Source of the DNA: an uncultured Methanomicrobiales archaeon
GTDB lineage: Archaea; Halobacteriota; Methanomicrobia; Methanomicrobiales; Methanospirillaceae
DNA: 64,000 nt
Assembly: GCA_963758915.1 (NCBI GenBank)
Contig: CAVWXH010000009.1
Location: 224,001 to 288,000, forward strand
Direction: 5' to 3'
Shown here: positions 2,540 through 10,611 of the stretch, in pieces
Layout: every line of letters starts with the position of its first letter
Numbering within the stretch: position 1 is the stretch's first letter
Notes under the pieces: model-generated
Database searches by the model: none
The model's input: only the letters and a program-made list of their open reading frames with translations
Told to the model about the DNA's origin: nothing
Translations under genes and position numbers: made by a program

Positions 2540-2698
2540 TTATTCCCACACGCATCCGCACCCGCTGCGATGAGGTAAAGCACGAATCCGGTCTTTTTCC
2601 TTGACAAGGCATACATCACAAAGGAGGACAACGCCCAGTTCCTGGTGATTCACCCTGGTAAAAGATATGCCGGATTCACCACAAACTGCACACTTCAT
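2540..2698 (-). CDS. 52-aa Cys-rich zinc-finger-like microprotein (not in the ORF track)
   Basis: Translated by hand: MKCAVCGESGISFTRVNHQELGVVLLCDVCLVKEKDRIRALPHRSGCGCVWE. Its ATG overlaps the TGA of the upstream gene (ATGA coupling). Contains CxxC...CxxC and a GCGC tail. Confidence 0.75.
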   Translation of the reverse strand: MKCAVCGESGISFTRVNHQELGVVLLCDVCLVKEKDRIRALPHRSGCGCVWE

Positions 2699-3063
2699 TT
2701 GCGGACCGCCTTCCGGACTGCCGCAACCAGTATCTCGATCTCATCGAACCTCGGGTCCGCCATCCCGTTCTTTTCAATCCCTTCTTCGGTCGCGATTATA
2801 TGGATATGAGGGGTTATGCACAGGCTTTTCAGTTTCTTCGCTGCACAATGGTCCTTACAGCCGTCAAGGACCAGCACCTTCCCACCGTTGATAACGTTCT
2901 CCATGTCATGCGTGGACTGTTTTGCATTCAGGTGCCCTTCGAACAAATCCGGTTCCCGCTGCACAAGAACTGCTGCTACCTGAGCAGTAAGTTTTCCGGT
3001 ATTGGAGATCCCCGAACAGGTAACGAGGACCAATGAATCGTTGTCATCAGGAATTAGTCTCAC
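2695..3063 (-). CDS. DGC-domain putative zinc-binding protein
   Basis: TCSGISNTGKLT and LDGCKDHCAAK motifs of the DGC family. Confidence 0.8.
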   Translation of the reverse strand: MRLIPDDNDSLVLVTCSGISNTGKLTAQVAAVLVQREPDLFEGHLNAKQSTHDMENVINGGKVLVLDGCKDHCAAKKLKSLCITPHIHIIATEEGIEKNGMADPRFDEIEILVAAVRKAVRK

Positions 3064-3112: not shown

Positions 3113-3910
3113 TCAAGTGGATGACCGTTTTACGGCCCTTACTTTCACGCTTCGTATTGATCCCTCAATCTTCGGGAACAGCGGATCGGTAGCGGAAAGG
3201 TCGAATGGGACTCGTACCTCCTCAAGTACTGCCACATCGGTTAAATTAGCTTTTCTTATCAGGTCAAGATACGCATCCTTCATTATCGCACCCGCGACAC
3301 AGCTCGTATAGGCTTCAACCGAAGTTCGTACTGACTCAGGGAGTGGTTGGTCGAGGACAATATCGGAGACCATGAGCAGTCCTCCTGGCTTTAGTACGCG
3401 GTATGCCTCCCGGAAGACTCTCGCCTTATCAGGAGAGAGATTGATAACGCAATTCGAGATTATGAGATCGACGGAGTTATCAGCAACCGGAAGTGCTTCA
3501 ATCTCTCCGAGCCGGAACTCGACATTGGTTACCCCGGCTTTCTTTGCATTTTCCCGTGCCTTTGCGAGCATCCCGGGGGTCATATCGACCCCGATAACCA
3601 ATCCGGTCTTTCCGACCTTGCGGGCCGCAAGGAAACAATCAAACCCGGCACCGGACCCCAGGTCAAGTACGGTGTCCCCTTCGTGAATCGCAGCATGGGC
3701 AAGCGGGTTCCCACAACCAAGTCCGAGATTTGCGCCAGCCGGGACCGCATTCATTTCTTCTGCCGAATACCCTGCTTTCCCGCTCATCTCTTCTGCGGTT
3801 GTTGTGCTGCCGCAGCAGGAGGATGATGGGCCACAGCAACCGCAGCCCTGCTCCGCCACCTTTGCGTAGCCCTTTCGTACATTTTTCCGTATTTCATGTT
3901 CGTCAGTCAT
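3113..3910 (-). CDS. arsM: Arsenite S-adenosylmethionine methyltransferase
   Basis: LGLGCGNP, VLDLGSGAGFD, IISNCVINL and a downstream Cys (SCVAGA); Cys-rich N-terminus GCGCCGPSSSCCG. Confidence 0.93.
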   Translation of the reverse strand: MTDEHEIRKNVRKGYAKVAEQGCGCCGPSSSCCGSTTTAEEMSGKAGYSAEEMNAVPAGANLGLGCGNPLAHAAIHEGDTVLDLGSGAGFDCFLAARKVGKTGLVIGVDMTPGMLAKARENAKKAGVTNVEFRLGEIEALPVADNSVDLIISNCVINLSPDKARVFREAYRVLKPGGLLMVSDIVLDQPLPESVRTSVEAYTSCVAGAIMKDAYLDLIRKANLTDVAVLEEVRVPFDLSATDPLFPKIEGSIRSVKVRAVKRSST

Positions 3911-3962
3911 GATTTCACCTGGTATGTACTCGTTATTATTTCGTCAGTTATTGTCATATTGT

Positions 3963-4673
3963 TCAATCCATCCTCGTTTTCTTCTCTTCCGCTGCCTTTG
4001 CGGCACTTCGTGCCTTCAGCTTCTCGATCATGTCGAGTGCTCGTTGTTTCGCGGCCCGTTCCTTGTCATCCTGTGGTTCAGACCACGGCTGTACGACCTT
4101 CCAGGTAATCTTCCCGCTCAACGGCGGTTCCGGCCATGCCCCGGGATCGCAGAGAACCTGGCCTTTGAAATCAACCGGTTTCTCCTGGTAACAGGACCAC
4201 ACGGCCTTCCTAATTACTTCTTCTGTCTGGAACTGGCAGTCAACAAGTGTCAGCTGGTCACGGAACCTCTGGATGAATTCCATCGGGACATTATACAGGA
4301 CTGCGGTAAGTCCTGTAGTCCCGATAATACGTTTCTTTTCATCGACCCCGTTCCGGAACAATGCCTTGATTGCATCTCCTGTCTTGTGTCCTTCGGATTC
4401 GGGGCCTCCAAGGATGAGGAATCTGATGTTCGGGTTCGCAACGATATTGCAGATAACCTTCTCGATGCCGATATTTGCCGTCTGCAACGTCCCTGATAGT
4501 GCAGCCCCGCTCTCCACGCCTGTCCGTACAAGGCGTTCAATCTCGGGTGGGATCTCTTCGGCATCGGTAGTCAGGATGATAATTACTGCGACAGGGGAGT
4601 AGTCGTTGCCTCTCAGGTAACGCCCCTCTTCGGGCGGATAGGCCTCATGAGGGGCCACTTTAAGCATGACCAT
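3963..4673 (-). CDS. Soluble MtrA/MtxA-like corrinoid protein (H4MPT S-methyltransferase subunit A family)
   Basis: YPPEEGRY..GN..SPVAV, GTLQTANIGIEKVICNIVANPNIRFLIL.G.E..GH.TG (cobalt-ligand His position kept). Charged C-terminus with no membrane anchor. Confidence 0.85.
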   Translation of the reverse strand: MVMLKVAPHEAYPPEEGRYLRGNDYSPVAVIIILTTDAEEIPPEIERLVRTGVESGAALSGTLQTANIGIEKVICNIVANPNIRFLILGGPESEGHKTGDAIKALFRNGVDEKKRIIGTTGLTAVLYNVPMEFIQRFRDQLTLVDCQFQTEEVIRKAVWSCYQEKPVDFKGQVLCDPGAWPEPPLSGKITWKVVQPWSEPQDDKERAAKQRALDMIEKLKARSAAKAAEEKKTRMD

Positions 4674-5370
4674 TCACACCGTTCCTGCCTGTTTTTTCCG
4701 GAACTCTTTTCAGTATCTGGTCCATCTCATCACTGAATTTTTCAAGTCCCGCAGCAGCCAGCGCTTCTTTTGGAATACTATGGAGCAGCTGCCGGACATG
4801 CAGGGCCCCGGATACTTCTTTGTCACAGGTCTTCCCAAACCGGGGTGCAACACAGTGGTGGCAGATCCGGAGACCGAAATGCCTGAGCGTTTCGGTGTTG
4901 AGTTGCATATTAACGCATTCAGCAGCAGCTCCCCGTGTCGAACCGCATGGGGCTTCCCTTACAATTTCAATCCCGGTGATCGTTCCGTTTTCCACGGTGG
5001 TCACAAAACCGGGAAGTCCGAACTTCTCCGCGTATAAGTCGATCTCTTTGCACCCGGTCGTTGGTTCAAGGGAGCACATGGTCGGGGCCGAGGCAACATG
5101 GGGGTTGATCTCTATCGCCTGGCGGACGAGACCGGGACCGGGGGTGATACCGAGCACTACCGGTATTCCCTGTTCGACAATGGCAAGGATAACATCCGGG
5201 TGCCGGGCATAGGAGATACAGAGGTCACATGGTGGCAGGTCTATCTCGACATCCTCCATGATCGGGGATCCTGAGTATGGAACCGTGACCCACCGGCAGG
5301 TGAACTGCCGGCAGATATTCTCAAATGCCCGCTTCCCGAATAACCCGTCGCTGATGATGTTTATCTGCAT
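4660..5370 (-). CDS. DUF166 family Cys-containing protein
   Basis: G.FG.RA N-terminus, HPD, P.MCSL, FG.P, R.APCGST and HHCVAP motifs recalled for DUF166; overlaps the mtrA-like start. Confidence 0.7.
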   Translation of the reverse strand: MQINIISDGLFGKRAFENICRQFTCRWVTVPYSGSPIMEDVEIDLPPCDLCISYARHPDVILAIVEQGIPVVLGITPGPGLVRQAIEINPHVASAPTMCSLEPTTGCKEIDLYAEKFGLPGFVTTVENGTITGIEIVREAPCGSTRGAAAECVNMQLNTETLRHFGLRICHHCVAPRFGKTCDKEVSGALHVRQLLHSIPKEALAAAGLEKFSDEMDQILKRVPEKTGRNGVNGHA

Positions 5371-5389
5371 AGGCTCTCCTTTACCACCT

Positions 5390-6439
5390 TCATACCGGAG
5401 ACCCCGCCGTTTTTTCAAACTCTTTAATCCGGCGTCTCCTTCTCAATGACAACCATACAATTCCCAGCATGACGGGTATTTCAATCAATGGACCGACAAC
5501 CGTGGAGACCGCGACCATCGGCATCGCTGCAAATGCTGTCAGTGCGATGGCAATCGCCAGCTCGAAGTTCCTGCCGGTACAGTGGAAACCCATCGTTGCC
5601 GAATCTTCGTAATTGTACCCCATACGCCTCGTCGTATAGTAGACAATATGGAACAGCAGGAAGAAGAACAGGACAATGGGGACCGCCATCTGCCAGATTA
5701 AGCTCGGGTTATCGATTATCACCTCGCCTTTCAGGGCGAACATGACAACCATGGTGAACAGTAATGCGAGCAGCTGGAGGACATTGAAGCGTGGTATGAG
5801 TTTGGTGTTCAGCCATTCCACGCCTTTCCGTTTGATTACCTCCCTGCGTGTAATAACCCCTAAAAGCAAGGGCAGACCGAGATAGAGAAGGACACTCTGG
5901 GCAATAAGGACGAAATCTATGGCAATGTACGTGCCTACCAGGAGAGCGATGAAGAAAGGTGTTGTAAAAATCTGGATAATGGAATTCCATGCCATGAGTA
6001 CGATCCCGAGGGGGCCGTTACCTTTGGCAAGGTCCGTCCACACCAGCACCATCGCAATGCACGGTGCGACACCGAGCAGGATAAGGCCGGTCCACAGGGA
6101 ACTGGCGGTTTCAGCCGTGATCCAACCCATGCCCAGCAGTATCTGCTCAAAGAATACCCATCCGATGAAATAGAGCAGGAAGGGATTGACAACGTAATTG
6201 AAAAAAACAATGATGGCGACCTGTTTCTTACTCTTGAAGGCATCTTTAAGTTCTCCCAGTTCGATCTTCGTCATCGCCGGGTAGATCATCAAAAATAATC
6301 CAATCGGGATACCAATTGCGAGATGCTGGCTGAATTCAGGGAAGTATTTCCCGATTGCTAACCCGGTTACAATACAGAGAAATATCCAGAGGGCCAGGAG
6401 TTTTTCAACCCAGCCCAGTCCTCCTGTACTTTCTGTCAT
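5390..6439 (-). CDS. acr3: Acr3 arsenite efflux transporter
   Basis: About 10 TM segments; IYPAMTKI, GVAPCIAMVLVW, GRNFELAIAIA and GPLIEIPVM motifs. Confidence 0.93.
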   Translation of the reverse strand: MTESTGGLGWVEKLLALWIFLCIVTGLAIGKYFPEFSQHLAIGIPIGLFLMIYPAMTKIELGELKDAFKSKKQVAIIVFFNYVVNPFLLYFIGWVFFEQILLGMGWITAETASSLWTGLILLGVAPCIAMVLVWTDLAKGNGPLGIVLMAWNSIIQIFTTPFFIALLVGTYIAIDFVLIAQSVLLYLGLPLLLGVITRREVIKRKGVEWLNTKLIPRFNVLQLLALLFTMVVMFALKGEVIIDNPSLIWQMAVPIVLFFFLLFHIVYYTTRRMGYNYEDSATMGFHCTGRNFELAIAIALTAFAAMPMVAVSTVVGPLIEIPVMLGIVWLSLRRRRRIKEFEKTAGSPV

Positions 6440-6530
6440 TGCGATGCGCTTTCCCTGCAAAATGGCCTGTGACCCTCAGGAAATGAGGGTTTTCTGACCT
6501 GGTCCATCGTGTCCATCAAAATTCACACCA

Positions 6531-6965
6531 TCAGAGGATTTTTTCAAGAATTGCTACGGCACCGGCAACCAGTTCAGGGCATTTCGTGACGAAGAGTCTG
6601 CTTTCACGTGCCCGTTCATATTCATCCGGGTTGCTGAGGTTATACCCGAGCAGTTCCGTGCAGTTGACCGAACCATACCGGGCGGTAAATTCCTGCATGA
6701 ATTCCCTGACCAAAGCCCGCAACTTTTCGGTTGCCGCATTATCCCCCTGTATTGTCTTCCCGTATTTCAGGCCAATCACCATAATCGCCCCTGATACGGC
6801 ACCGCAGATGTTCCCTGTTTTCGAGATACCTGCACCAAAACCGCAGCCTATTTTCTTTGCCATATCCGGGTCCAGTCCGAGCTCCCCGGCAAATGTGGAG
6901 AACACTACTGACGAGCAGGTAAACCCGCTCTGGAAACTCGCAAGTGCATCATCGGATTTTGTCAT
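6531..6965 (-). CDS. C_GCAxxG_C_C family putative redox protein
   Basis: GFTCS...GFGAG...ICGAVSGA...SVNCTELLG...KC pattern. Confidence 0.85.
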   Translation of the reverse strand: MTKSDDALASFQSGFTCSSVVFSTFAGELGLDPDMAKKIGCGFGAGISKTGNICGAVSGAIMVIGLKYGKTIQGDNAATEKLRALVREFMQEFTARYGSVNCTELLGYNLSNPDEYERARESRLFVTKCPELVAGAVAILEKIL

Positions 6966-6974
6966 TGCCCACCT

Positions 6975-7439
6975 TCAGCAGCTTCCTCCGCAACGGTCCC
7001 CGCAGCCGCAGCCTCCTGGTCCCGGTTTCTTATCGTTTTGTTCCGGGACTTCTGTTCTTCCGGCTCCTTCCCAGGCTGCTGATACGACTGTTTCAATATC
7101 GGCATCTGTGTAGTCCCTTGACCCGGACTTCACAATACCCAGTTCAGTTACGATGATATGCTGTCCGGGGATGATTCCCTGCTCTGCTGCTATCTTTTTC
7201 GCACACAGCATCGGGCAGCCATCAAGGATGACCACTTCGTCAGCCTTCTTTGCATTGGCGACAAGCCCTTCGGCACCGATTGCAAGCAGAGCTACACAGG
7301 CGATATTCCCGTATCCTTCCTCGGTTAACTGGATTGCTGCTAGGTTGGTGAGCTGCCCGGTGTTTGCCTGCCCGGCACAGGGAAAGATGATCCGTTTAGG
7401 TTCGTCCTGTCCGCATGAACAGGTAGGTGTTTCTGCCAT
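6975..7439 (-). CDS. DGC-domain zinc-binding protein with Cys-rich tail
   Basis: PCAGQANTGQL, ACVA, LDGCPMLCAKK; tail GGCGCGDRCGGSC. Confidence 0.85.
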   Translation of the reverse strand: MAETPTCSCGQDEPKRIIFPCAGQANTGQLTNLAAIQLTEEGYGNIACVALLAIGAEGLVANAKKADEVVILDGCPMLCAKKIAAEQGIIPGQHIIVTELGIVKSGSRDYTDADIETVVSAAWEGAGRTEVPEQNDKKPGPGGCGCGDRCGGSC

Positions 7440-7681
7440 CACGCACCTCCACCCAGGAACTTTTTGATTTCCGGGACATCGGCGACCCTGCCTGAGATTT
7501 TCAGGTCTCCGTCCACAATAACCGCCGGCAGCATCATCACGCCCCGTTCCATGATCTGGGCGATATCATCCACTTTTACGATCTCTGCGGTGATACCAAG
7601 TTGTTTGACCGCTGCTTCGACATTGCTCATCTGCCGCTTGCAGTTTGCGCAACCGGTCCCGAGTACTTCAATGGTTACCAT
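7439..7681 (-). CDS. Small redox-active disulfide protein (MTH895/thioredoxin-like)
   Basis: IEVLGTGCANC...GVMMLPAVIVDG, 80 aa. Confidence 0.88.
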   Translation of the reverse strand: MVTIEVLGTGCANCKRQMSNVEAAVKQLGITAEIVKVDDIAQIMERGVMMLPAVIVDGDLKISGRVADVPEIKKFLGGGA

Positions 7682-7703: not shown

Positions 7704-7768
7704 TTCTAATTTATTTGAAATATCAGGGATACTACCAGATAAAGATATCTATTTCATATTAAATTGAA
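7704..7768. promoter_or_regulatory. Paired ArsR-type operators upstream of the trx-DGC-acr3-arsM operon
   Basis: TTCTA-N6-TTGAA at 7704-7719 and TTCAT-N6-TTGAA at 7753-7768; the same motif occurs twice at the arsR promoter. Confidence 0.6.
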
Positions 7769-7805
7769 CCTGACAACCGGGTGTGGGAGGGACTGACCCC
7801 TGTCA

Positions 7806-8768
7806 CTACCCTAGTATCACGTTAAAGAGCAGCCCGGTAATGGTTATCGCTGCAAACATAATTCCTGCAAAGACCGCGATGAGTTTTATTTTTATTACTT
7901 TCCGGAGGATAATCATCTCCGGGAGTGATAACCCGATCACCGACATCATAAACGCGAGGGCAGTCCCGAAAGCCATACCCTTTGAGGTCAGGACATCCAA
8001 AATCGGGATCATCCCGGCTGCATTAGAATACAGGGGTATACCAATGAGCACTGCGATTGGGACTGCAAGAGGGTTATCAGGGCCTGCAATATTCACGAGG
8101 AAATCAGCCGGTGCATACCCATGAATTATCGCCCCGATTGCGATACCTATGAGGATGTATGGCAGGACCTTCAGGGTGATGCTCTTTGATTCACCTATTG
8201 CAAAGTCGGTCCGGTCCCGCCAGGTCATGACCTTGTCCGGCTGGTCATGTAACTTGCATTTATAGACGAACTCTTCGACCTGGTTTTCGAGGTGGAGCCT
8301 CCCGATAATAATTCCTGCAACGATGGCGATGATCAGGCCTGATACGATGTAGAGTGCTGCAATCTGCCACCCGAATAATGCAAAAAGCATCGCGATGGCA
8401 ACTTCATTGATCAACGGCGAAGCGATGAGGAAAGAGAACGTGATCCCCAGTGGCACACCCGACTCGACAAACCCTATAAAGAGCGGGACTGCCGAACACG
8501 AGCAGAACGGAGTAGGAATACCAAGAAGGGCCGCAAATACATTCCCCACTCCTTCGGTCCTCCCGCCTACCCATTTCTTCACTTTCTGCGGGGTAACGAA
8601 AGTCCGTATTATACCGACAAAGAATACGATGACCGCGAGAAGAGCGGTCACCTTGATCGAATCGTAGATAAAGAAATTGACCGAGGAGGCAAGCGGGGTC
8701 CCTGCTACTAATCCTAAAACCGTATACGTGACCCAGTCCGCAAACATCTGTAAATAGTCAGGAATCAT
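7806..8768 (-). CDS. arsP: ArsP-like (DUF318) permease
   Basis: TPFCSCSAVPLF, FLIASPLINE, IPLYSNAAG and SLPEMIIL motifs. Confidence 0.85.
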   Translation of the reverse strand: MIPDYLQMFADWVTYTVLGLVAGTPLASSVNFFIYDSIKVTALLAVIVFFVGIIRTFVTPQKVKKWVGGRTEGVGNVFAALLGIPTPFCSCSAVPLFIGFVESGVPLGITFSFLIASPLINEVAIAMLFALFGWQIAALYIVSGLIIAIVAGIIIGRLHLENQVEEFVYKCKLHDQPDKVMTWRDRTDFAIGESKSITLKVLPYILIGIAIGAIIHGYAPADFLVNIAGPDNPLAVPIAVLIGIPLYSNAAGMIPILDVLTSKGMAFGTALAFMMSVIGLSLPEMIILRKVIKIKLIAVFAGIMFAAITITGLLFNVILG

Positions 8769-8897
8769 CACGTGCTCCCCCCTCACATTCATAAATGTTC
8801 CATTCAGTCATCGGCGGTCCCTCGTGTGCCATCGTCGGTATTCAGAATTATATCAATAACCATTCTACCAGAATTCCCATGAACCAGCAGTTAGAGA

Positions 8898-8966
8898 TTC
8901 AAATTATCTTGAAATTATATTGTCAGTGGAAGACATATATACCTTACCATTTCATATTAATTTGAA
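8898..8966. promoter_or_regulatory. Paired ArsR-type operators in the divergent arsP/arsR promoter
   Basis: TTCAA-N6-TTGAA at 8898-8913 and TTCAT-N6-TTGAA at 8951-8966, flanking a TATA-like ATATATA. Confidence 0.65.
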
Positions 8967-8972
8967 TCTTTT

Positions 8973-9371
8973 ATGCCACAGACAAAAACACGTTCACGCC
9001 CGGCCAAATGCTGCGATGTTACAAGGGATATCCCGGATCCAGTCCGGGACGAACTTAATAAAAGAGGCGGAATGGACGGACTACTTGCCCGGATCCCGGA
9101 CCCGGCTTCACGGTATACGAGCAGCCGTCTTGCCCAGGCACTGGCCGATCCGATCCGCCTTACTGTCATGTACGCGCTTCATTCCCAGCCGCTCTGCGTC
9201 TGCGTGATCAAGGCAGTCGTCCAGATTGCAGACTCAAAGCTCTCCTACCATCTCACGATCCTAAAAGAACAGGAATTTATTGTCGGTGAACAGCAGGGCA
9301 ACTGGATTATCTACTCAATTACAGACCGTGGCCGGCAGGCACTGAAGTGTATTGAAAAAATGGGAGTCTGA
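8973..9371 (+). CDS. arsR: ArsR/SmtB family transcriptional repressor
   Basis: ALADPIRL...LCVCVI...SKLSYHL.IL...G.WI.YS winged HTH; additional N-terminal CC. Confidence 0.9.
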   Translation: MPQTKTRSRPAKCCDVTRDIPDPVRDELNKRGGMDGLLARIPDPASRYTSSRLAQALADPIRLTVMYALHSQPLCVCVIKAVVQIADSKLSYHLTILKEQEFIVGEQQGNWIIYSITDRGRQALKCIEKMGV

Positions 9372-9375
9372 ACAG

Positions 9376-9867
9376 ATGGACCCCTGGAAACCAAAATTAA
9401 TAATTCCCCTGGTCCTTGCCTGCATGATGATATCCCTGCTTTTTGTTGCAGGATGCTCATCTCTCACGGCAAATGAGGGTAAAGGTGCGATTTCTCCATC
9501 GACCGCGAACATTACCCGAAGTACTGTCGAACGTGTAGAGGTAATGCATTTCCACCCGGCCCAGCAATGTTATTCCTGCAGGACGCTTGGGGAATATGCA
9601 AATGAGACACTGAACATCTTCTTTGCTCCTGAACTCGAATCCGGAAAACTGGTATACCAGGAAGTGAATATCAACCTCCCGGAGAACGCCGATCTCGTGA
9701 AGAAATACGAGGTGACCGGGTCATCGCTGTGGATCGGTGTGTATGACACGAACGGGTTCCACAAGGAACAGAATGTCAACGTGTGGTATAAAATCAATAA
9801 TAAAGCAGAATTTGCGCAGTATCTCCAGCCGATAATCAGGGACAGGCTTAATGGAGTCATTACCTGA
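9376..9867 (+). CDS. ArsF-family thioredoxin-fold lipoprotein
   Basis: Lipobox-like VAGC; VEVMHFH...QCYSCR motif; precedes the ArsG-like gene. Confidence 0.7.
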   Translation: MDPWKPKLIIPLVLACMMISLLFVAGCSSLTANEGKGAISPSTANITRSTVERVEVMHFHPAQQCYSCRTLGEYANETLNIFFAPELESGKLVYQEVNINLPENADLVKKYEVTGSSLWIGVYDTNGFHKEQNVNVWYKINNKAEFAQYLQPIIRDRLNGVIT

Positions 9868-10611
9868 TGGATTTTATGCAGGTAATGGAGACGATGGGTA
9901 CCAGCGGTATCCCGGTCGTCGCCGCTTTTTTTATCGGTCTTATGACCGCCTTCAGTCCTTGTACGCTCGCGACCAACATCACCGCGATTGCGTTTATATC
10001 CAAAAAAATTGACAACAATCGTCACACGCTCCTGGCCGGTTGTGTCTATACGCTCGGAAGGGTGGTCGCGTATGTCGCCGTGGCATCAGTCATTGTTTTC
10101 TTCGGGATGAACATCCAGTTTATTGCCCTGGGACTACAGCATTACGGTGAACTTCTGCTCGGGCCGTTCCTTATTGCGTGTGGGATTTACCTCCTCGATA
10201 TCATCCCTTTCAGCAGTCTGCCAGGATCATGCAGGATCGCAACCTTTTCTTCAGGGGTTACTGCAAGCCTCGCAGAGAGAGGTTATCTCGGCGCATTCCT
10301 GCTCGGTGTTATCTTTGCCATGAGTTTCTGCCCGTTCAGTGTCGTCCTCTTCTTTGCCATGCTGATCCCGCTCGCTCTTGGGTGCGGGCGACCCGGTACT
10401 CATTCCTGCGGTGTTCGCCATCGCAACCGGTTTACCAGTAATTGTGATCTCGTACTTCCTCGTGACGGGTGTAGGGAAGTGCAGTGGAATTGTTAAGAAA
10501 GTGGGGGAGATCGGGCCCTGGATCCAGAGAGCGGTCGCAGCGGTGTTTATCGTGGTCGGGTTGTACTATATTGCAATTATCCCCGGAATTGCAGGTAGTA
10601 TCTCTTTTTAG
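9867..10611 (+). CDS. ArsG/CcdA-like membrane protein (aromatic arsenical efflux family), frameshift near 10380
   Basis: GLMTAFSPCTLATN, YTLGR and FAMSFCPFS motifs; the C-terminus continues in ORF 10378-10611 (ATGLPV). Confidence 0.75.

Follow-up and report, generated by a model that had tools for sequence, protein, structure and literature searches.

An MtrA-like gene in an arsenic-resistance gene string

The subject of this study is a gene at positions 3963-4673 of a 64,000-nucleotide (nt) stretch of DNA from an uncultured Methanomicrobiales archaeon (GenBank assembly GCA_963758915.1); this whole 64-kb stretch is called the window below. The gene encodes a homologue of MtrA, the cobamide subunit of methyl-tetrahydromethanopterin (H4MPT):coenzyme M methyltransferase, and it stands in a string of arsenic-resistance (ars) genes. 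We show here that it is a regular member of ars clusters, probably controlled by ArsR to judge from the motifs upstream. Soluble MtrA-like proteins are conserved in this setting in several methanogen lineages and some anaerobic bacteria, which suggests that anaerobes handle arsenic partly through a B12-dependent step not yet described. The string and its control region contain the following features.

8973-9371, plus strand: arsR, an ArsR/SmtB metalloregulator divergent from arsP (NF033788 70.9 bits, cut-off 55; Pfam HTH_5)
8895-8969: inverted pair of a 21-nt operator-like motif between arsR and arsP (inverted repeat I6, 21-nt arms, 86% complementary)
7806-8792, minus strand: arsP-type permease (Pfam ArsP_1 254.4 bits)
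7751-7771: third copy of the operator-like motif, an exact match about 70 nt upstream of the thioredoxin-like gene that heads the string
7439-7681, minus strand: thioredoxin-like protein of the MTH895/ArsE family, first gene of the string (TIGR00412 99.4 bits, cut-off 62)
6975-7442, minus strand: DGC-domain Cys-rich protein (Pfam DGC 114 bits)
6531-6965, minus strand: C_GCAxxG_C_C putative redox protein (Pfam 111.5 bits)
5390-6460, minus strand: acr3-type arsenite efflux carrier (Pfam SBF 144.5 bits; TIGR00832 277.3 bits, slightly below the cut-off of 282.8)
4660-5373, minus strand: DUF166 protein, 237 residues from the ATG at 5373 (open reading frame 4660-5418; Pfam DUF166 99.9 bits, cut-off 24.4)
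3963-4673, minus strand: predicted soluble MtrA-like cobamide-binding protein, 236 residues (Pfam MtrA 128 bits, cut-off 25)
3113-3910, minus strand: arsM, S-adenosylmethionine (SAM)-dependent arsenite methyltransferase (NCBIfam NF008823 352.6 bits, cut-off 263)
2695-3063, minus strand: second DGC-domain protein (Pfam DGC 75.8 bits), syntenic in relatives
2540-2698, minus strand: Cys-rich open reading frame of 52 residues overlapping the end of the second DGC gene (no Pfam family)

The initial annotation of this DNA had described acr3, DUF166, the MtrA-like gene and arsM as tightly packed on one strand, and the open reading frames and profile matches uphold both their positions and their identities. 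The overlap it reported between DUF166 and the MtrA-like gene amounts to 8-14 nt, and a gap of 52 nt separates the MtrA-like gene from arsM. DUF166 starts at the ATG at 5373, where its homologues begin; the true start of the MtrA-like protein is probably Met3 at 4667, because its homologues begin MLKV. The operators that had been placed upstream correspond to the repeated 21-nt motif found beside arsR and ahead of the gene string, which has three copies in the window and no match in 100 shuffled versions of it, and whose 16-nt core recurs at the equivalent arsR/arsP and string-head positions of close relatives. Small contigs from RNA libraries match parts of the string (acr3, DUF166 and the MtrA-like gene at its 5' end), with DNA carry-over possible; they come from four runs, comprising three RNA libraries and one run filed as RNA that is probably DNA, and the parts left uncovered are uninformative.

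The window holds no further mtr gene, as the initial annotation had also observed. It belongs to contig C9, and the canonical mtrA genes lie in tandem on contig C3 (209303-211986), followed by the only mtrH of the genome. The mtrA duplication is present in most relatives searched.

Fold and cofactor site of the MtrA-like protein

A sequence search of the PDB aligned residues 4-171 of the MtrA-like protein with solved MtrA (E 5.7e-33 to 5LAA and 8.1e-32 to 8Q3V). Pfam finds PF04208 (MtrA) alone in the protein, and the B12-binding domain PF02310 is not among its matches. The His of the E..GH.TG motif, which the initial annotation had singled out, is present in ESEGHKTG as His96 and aligns with His84, the lower axial cobalt ligand of solved MtrA. 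We compared residue usage among 37 Methanoregulaceae-type sequences, a second set of 47 from loci L130-L177 without L138 (45 labelled bacterial, 2 Methanosarcina/Methanosarcinales), and 43 canonical MtrA proteins. The His ligand is kept in 84/84 long-clade sequences (37/37 and 47/47; the clade is defined below) and in 43/43 canonical ones.

We read the alignment to solved MtrA against the description of the cobalamin site in PMC4915002. Six residues of the cobamide pocket are matched, namely Tyr18 (Tyr19 in the MtrA-like protein), Thr53 (Thr65), Asn55 (Asn67), Gly57 (Gly69), Val61 (Val73) and Asn64 (Asn76), and Asp17 and Lys52, which make backbone contacts in solved MtrA, are replaced by Arg and Gln. 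Three cysteines mark the clade. Cys75 and Cys161 each occur in 83/84 sequences (36/37 Methanoregulaceae-type, 47/47 of the second set), at positions where canonical MtrA mostly has Ala and Leu, respectively. The Methanoregulaceae-type sequences all have Cys146 (37/37); at this position, every one of the 47 in the second set has Leu, Ile or Val, and canonical MtrA has Ile or Met.

The C-terminal membrane anchor of MtrA had been noted as missing, and hydropathy agrees: the best 19-residue Kyte-Doolittle mean reaches 1.22 in the MtrA-like protein, whereas the C-termini of the two canonical MtrA proteins of the same genome reach 2.29 and 2.85. On these comparisons, the gene product is a predicted soluble cobamide-binding protein of the MtrA fold.

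Phylogeny and distribution

A search of 1.84 billion cluster representatives placed the protein in a long subfamily of about 230 residues with a conserved 60-residue C-terminal extension; the family numbers about 760 members. In a tree of 118 rows (IQ-TREE quick mode, unrooted, with support from the SH-aLRT branch test only), three groups were recovered: membrane-bound canonical MtrA, a clade of short soluble proteins from two further methanogen families, and the long clade, which is set off from canonical MtrA by a branch of length 0.82 with SH-aLRT 99. Bacteria and Methanoregulaceae are intermingled in a tight 55-row set of the long clade (support 98). The protein from the window falls in a set of 20 rows (support 98) that is archaeal except for a bacterial-labelled 2-kb contig (L124), which is probably mis-binned. 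We claim no direction of transfer because the tree is unrooted. The groups were defined by the tree clades because NCBIfam NF002126, tried as a marker of the soluble subfamily, was not discriminating; its cut-off is passed by 242/401 genomes, and it does not separate canonical MtrA.

Scanning species-representative genomes yielded 80 long-clade loci, 34 archaeal and 46 bacterial by label, the latter including Thermodesulfobacteriota, Anaerolineae, Actinomycetota, Spirochaetota, Nitrospinota and Planctomycetota. Beyond Methanoregulaceae, the nearest relatives of the window protein are bacterial, at 62-71% identity, and include two complete chromosomes. Its identity to the MtrA of its own genome is only 33-39%; it scores 43-72 bits against the sampled short soluble forms and about 100 bits against canonical MtrA. 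To judge from these comparisons, the MtrA-like protein is clearly no recent duplicate of the MtrA of its genome and no methanogenesis-specific offshoot.

Members of the long subfamily are occasionally fused to TusA, ferredoxin or thymidylate-synthase domains. The fusions to thymidylate synthase (PF00303; P0273, P0279, P0292, P0294 and P0302) stand at the base of the long clade, and a relative of DUF166 (P0154) carries the source name 'Thymidylate synthase'; together they suggest a link between MtrA-like domains and pterin-dependent one-carbon enzymes. An apparent fusion to a low-molecular-weight (LMW) phosphatase of the ArsC type (P0261) was rejected as a true fusion, having an Arg-rich linker and lacking the first 40 MtrA-like residues. 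It is probably a frameshift or run-on of two adjacent genes and shows adjacency only.

Some copies of the gene are broken. In one genome (G023), a remnant of 103 residues with N- and C-terminal parts only lies next to arsP (L046, 6958-7269), and a second copy is split in two frames (L043, 7050-7747); these may reflect decay or assembly errors. In another (G006; L037/L112), the MtrA-like gene, DUF166, arsP and the thioredoxin-like gene are each split in two frames, which looks like sequencing error rather than a set of pseudogenes because many frameshifts occur in one assembly. This genome carries a P-type ATPase and an LMW-phosphatase arsC in place of arsM.

Linkage to arsenic-resistance genes

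Orthologues with 63-98% identity were found in 12/41 related genomes, and all 12 have ars-type neighbours: arsR, arsP, acr3, DGC, thioredoxin-like, C_GCAxxG or LMW-phosphatase arsC genes. The last of these (Pfam LMWPc) often directly adjoins the MtrA-like gene. In the window's own genome, ars-type matches occur in only three places in 2.38 Mb.

For the wider set, linkage was scored by tblastn with the window's proteins, using fixed thresholds for acr3, arsP, arsM and arsC within 5 kb; eight archaeal loci that had been set aside because they duplicated earlier ones were scored from the earlier locus scan, and related genomes enter these counts as non-independent samples. An ars gene was found at 31/34 archaeal loci of the long clade and at no fewer than 9 of the 46 bacterial ones, the bacterial count being a lower bound because arsB, arsA, arsD, glutaredoxin-type arsC and arsH escape the window queries. 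The Actinomycetota account for 5 linked loci out of 10. The short soluble clade is linked at 10/20 loci (one locus was unscorable with the query used), and canonical mtrA, taken as a control with the same flanks, at 0/20. An ars-linked clade of MtrA-like proteins, which the initial annotation had suggested looking for, thus exists and is far from unique to one genome; a second clade shows the same linkage.

Co-occurrence of this clade with DUF166 and arsM, a question also raised there, holds at some loci only. ArsM above the NF008823 cut-off is encoded directly beside MtrA-like genes in the window, at two Actinomycetota loci (one of these pairs overlaps by 4 nt) and at two short-clade loci, which makes arsM an optional neighbour present at few loci. 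Among five relatives carrying an ars-linked MtrA-like gene, two of them 98-99% complete, none has an ArsM above the family cut-off. The MtrA-like gene is therefore linked to arsenic clusters in general and not to ArsM, and support of the SAM cycle for ArsM was rejected as its general role. DUF166 occurs within 5 kb of the gene at 13/34 archaeal and 0/46 bacterial loci.

Neither neighbour clustering nor a count of the Pfam families of 64 operon neighbours revealed a partner gene shared by the bacterial loci. The largest counts were three members each, for ArsR and for alpha/beta-hydrolase, and pterin-binding, MtrH and URO-D families were not among the matches listed (25 of 62) for these neighbours, which come from L130-L177 without L138. 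Genes for MT1/MT2-type methyltransferases are absent beside the MtrA-like gene. In several genomes of other methanogen families (L078, L080, L089, L093), a DGC gene directly adjoins the short-clade MtrA-like gene; DGC proteins may accompany ars-linked MtrA-like proteins more constantly than DUF166 does.

The DUF166 protein

Two DUF166 variants, about 50% identical, accompany the MtrA-like gene; one lies directly upstream of it, as in the window, and the other beside a second DGC gene. A subfamily alignment of 42 sequences shows Cys143 and Cys183 to be invariant and Cys100, Cys171 and Cys174 to be kept in at least 90%. The window protein scores 56 bits against the selenoprotein subfamily DfsP, for which the cut-off is 200. 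A PDB sequence search with DUF166 returned nothing below E 0.9, and Foldseek of its AlphaFold2 model (pLDDT 91) against the PDB gave no match at E <= 0.001. When residues 1-120 of the model were compared by VIA-align, Z values of about 8 were obtained to CheY-like receivers, KTN domains and the MetH cobalamin domain. These matches would reflect a common alpha/beta arrangement that does not decide function, and they barely cover the Cys-rich C-terminal half. A complex prediction for the MtrA-like protein with DUF166 scored 0.00, which says nothing either way on binding.

The only other DUF166 gene of the genome encodes 319 residues at the 3' end of cdhABCDE and overlaps the gene of a PF02310 B12-binding protein by 31 nt; its neighbours are a divergent RACo-type activase (Fer2 and ASKHA domains) and a CooC-like ATPase (contig C15, 89500-101000; L179, L180). 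In Methanococcus maripaludis, a DUF166 gene next to the operon of CO dehydrogenase/acetyl-CoA synthase (CODH/ACS) is needed for autotrophy and shows co-fitness with the operon, according to bioRxiv 10.1101/2024.03.05.583561. Because DUF166 accompanies corrinoid systems in three unrelated settings, we infer that it may act as a general accessory factor for corrinoid proteins. It had been proposed as the partner of the MtrA-like protein; its independent links to corrinoid systems speak for such a part, and its distribution makes it an optional companion of the MtrA-like gene.

Discussion

We regard it as settled that the protein has the MtrA fold, keeps the cofactor site and is soluble, that two clades are linked to ars genes independently of ArsM, and that MT1/MT2-type partners are lacking. 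From this genomic evidence, the most likely role of the MtrA-like protein would be that of an arsenic-regulated cobamide carrier acting on arsenicals, a role that we propose tentatively. Such a protein would bind cobamide in the base-off/His-on state and cycle between Co(I) and methyl-Co(III), and the bound cobamide would react directly with trivalent arsenicals. For the cell, the result would be a SAM-independent conversion of arsenic species followed by their export through the neighbouring ArsP and Acr3. DUF166, where present, would keep the cobamide protein active by reduction, loading or methyl loading, and the small Cys-rich redox proteins (thioredoxin-like, DGC and C_GCAxxG) may provide reducing power. 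Methyl donation onto As(III) or trivalent monomethylarsenic (MAs(III)) would be slightly favoured over demethylation because arsM adjoins such genes in three lineages, where a demethylase would create a futile cycle.

Methanogen extracts are reported in work of the 1970s to methylate arsenic with methylcobalamin, and a cobamide protein in ars operons, if it acts as proposed, would give this long-known activity a molecular basis. The arsenical chemistry on record concerns free methylcobalamin and cob(I)alamin. According to two reviews (PMC6950371, PMC13262295), methylcobalamin methylates As(III) non-enzymatically under reducing conditions, methanogens methylate arsenic through it as a side reaction, and the ratio of methyl-Co(III) to Co(I) sets methylation versus hydride formation. 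Anaerobic demethylation of arsenic is methanogen-dependent, and its enzyme is described as unidentified (PMC10579292; bioRxiv 10.64898/2026.08.27.747368).

Several observations weigh against a carrier that acts on arsenicals. No gene lies nearby for a partner that could put a methyl group on the cobamide or take it off, and DUF166 is absent from most loci. Glu54 of the His-Glu-Ile hydrogen-bond relay of MtrA is Ala66 in the window protein; at this position, the Methanoregulaceae-type sequences have Ala (34), Glu (2) or Pro (1), the second set has Glu (33) or Pro (14), and all 43 canonical proteins have Glu. The meander consensus GAIPF(Y/F)xEN is not kept either, the window protein having GLTAVLYNV. 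Because of both changes, cofactor behaviour may differ from that of MtrA. No ars gene lies within 5 kb at 37/46 bacterial loci, including all 12 from Thermodesulfobacteriota, and many of these are single genes with unrelated neighbours, so the general role of the family need not concern arsenic. Finally, work on demethylation implicates methylotrophic methanogens and not hydrogenotrophs such as Methanoregula (PMC10579292).

The proposal can be widened. Soluble MtrA-type cobamide proteins may be the missing SAM- and O2-independent As-C bond enzymes of anaerobes, methylating As(III) or MAs(III) or demethylating methylarsenicals at cobalt and recruited to ars operons at least twice, with DUF166 as a general corrinoid activator or loader for them and for CODH/ACS. 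We consider this wider claim possible but doubtful.

The many stand-alone bacterial genes raise an alternative, namely cobamide care under arsenic stress, in which the protein would hold, protect or deliver cobamide for Mtr, CODH/ACS and methionine synthesis and carry out no arsenic chemistry. Bacterial members that mostly have neither ars nor methyltransferase neighbours would fit a general handling of cobamide that only corrinoid-dependent lineages brought into their ars clusters, and the conserved cofactor pocket and the DUF166 paralogues beside other corrinoid proteins agree with it. However, cobamide care leaves unexplained why arsM repeatedly stands directly beside such genes in three lineages and why a second MtrA clade independently joined ars clusters, and no ars gene is known to us to have a comparable role. 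We therefore judge it unlikely, though it deserves to be kept in view.

The clade-specific cysteines invite a different explanation. In ars proteins, As(III) is usually bound by two or three cysteines. Cys75 and Cys161 throughout the long clade, joined by Cys146 in the Methanoregulaceae-type proteins, could act as a redox pair or as a binding site for As(III) or MAs(III); the protein would then be a chaperone or sensor for the exporters, and its cobamide would be dispensable or only structural. The abundance of small Cys proteins in the cluster is in keeping with this. Yet the invariant His ligand and the strictly conserved cobamide pocket would be hard to explain if the cofactor were unimportant, which makes a thiol-based role rather improbable.

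Since ars clusters are often mobile, the gene could also be a passenger of unrelated function that travels with an ars island. The long clade shows signs of inter-domain transfer, and most bacterial copies are not linked to ars genes. Nevertheless, the linkage has persisted in Methanoregulaceae although the order of the genes changed many times; it is seen again in Actinomycetota and Spirochaetota, and it arose anew in a different MtrA clade; the gene, moreover, overlaps its upstream neighbour and belongs to an operator-bearing string. A passenger without any arsenic role thus has a small chance of being right.

The initial annotation had considered a methyl shuttle of methanogens that draws on methyl-H4MPT, or a decoy protecting the Mtr complex, an idea that suits a methanogen with a complete mtr operon elsewhere, whose MtrH could in principle methylate the soluble protein, but that is much weakened and now very improbable given the low identity to the genome's own MtrA, the long supported branch, the loss of the meander motif and Glu54, and the bacterial nearest relatives, which by taxonomy should lack H4MPT and Mtr, so that neither function can be the general role of the family.

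A cobamide carrier acting on arsenicals, as proposed here, would differ from each of the known systems that it resembles. With MtrA itself (PF04208; 5LAA, 5L8X, 8Q3V), the protein shares the domain family, the His ligand and the pocket for the nucleotide tail; it departs from MtrA in lacking the juxtamembrane and transmembrane segment, in lying outside an mtr operon, and in its Ala for Glu54, diverged meander, C-terminal extension, clade-specific cysteines and separate clade. The short cytoplasmic MtrA homologues of methanogens are likewise soluble, anchor-less, His-containing MtrA domains; they are reported to have 170-180 residues and 60-97% identity to MtrA, with no physiological role assigned (Wagner et al. 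2016, PMC4915002), whereas the protein studied here is longer, far less similar to its own MtrA and in a different clade. The likeness to HgcA/HgcB of mercury methylation, a corrinoid protein that methylates a toxic element together with a Cys-rich or Fe-S partner, is one of concept only: Pfam finds MtrA alone in the MtrA-like protein, which is not homologous to HgcA and, unlike HgcA, has no membrane domain. Three-component corrinoid methyltransferases (MtaABC and relatives), too, have a corrinoid protein able to accept a methyl group from a methylated substrate, and they are the present candidates for demethylation of dimethylated arsenic (PMC10579292; bioRxiv 10.64898/2026.08.27.747368). The MtrA-like protein has another B12-binding fold (not PF02310), no MT1 or MT2 nearby, and a place in ars clusters instead of methylotrophy operons. 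ArsM and ArsI, the As-C bond enzymes, share the ars-cluster setting, ArsM being a direct neighbour in the window; ArsM uses SAM and ArsI requires O2 (same sources), whereas a cobamide route would need neither.

What is new here is a known cofactor-binding fold in a conserved ars setting, one that is probably functional too. Our literature search, whose reach did not extend to most subscription journals, found no account linking MtrA homologues with ars operons, and no paper for MtrA together with DUF166 or for the full MtrA subunit name with arsenic. One article (PMC11362671) mentions both genes and draws no link between them. The 2016 MtrA structure paper notes bacterial and soluble homologues, and the stem 'arsen' is absent from its text (PMC4915002).

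Anaerobic methylation and demethylation of arsenic govern its speciation in rice paddies, peat and sediments, and a predicted cobamide protein in ars operons of abundant wetland methanogens and of several anaerobic bacterial phyla offers a concrete gene to test. An action on arsenicals would give a physiological role to soluble MtrA homologues, which have lacked one since the structure was solved, and to DUF166. If it is borne out, surveys that count arsM and arsI alone overlook a whole arsenic route.

Genes flanking the string

The 52-residue Cys-rich open reading frame at the end of the string is kept after the second DGC gene in relatives and occurs near arsR in other methanogen loci. Directly downstream on the minus strand, a block at 42-2378 contains a split YeeE/YedE-type sulphur-transport pair (1306-1857 and 1833-2378), an open reading frame of 94 residues and a DsrE-domain protein of 320 residues, and is syntenic in close relatives. 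On the other side, at 9352-10496 on the plus strand, arsR is followed by a protein of 171 residues (no Pfam family) and a DsbD_2-type membrane protein, a pair also found next to the ars genes of other Methanoregulaceae, of a second methanogen family and of two Actinomycetota loci.

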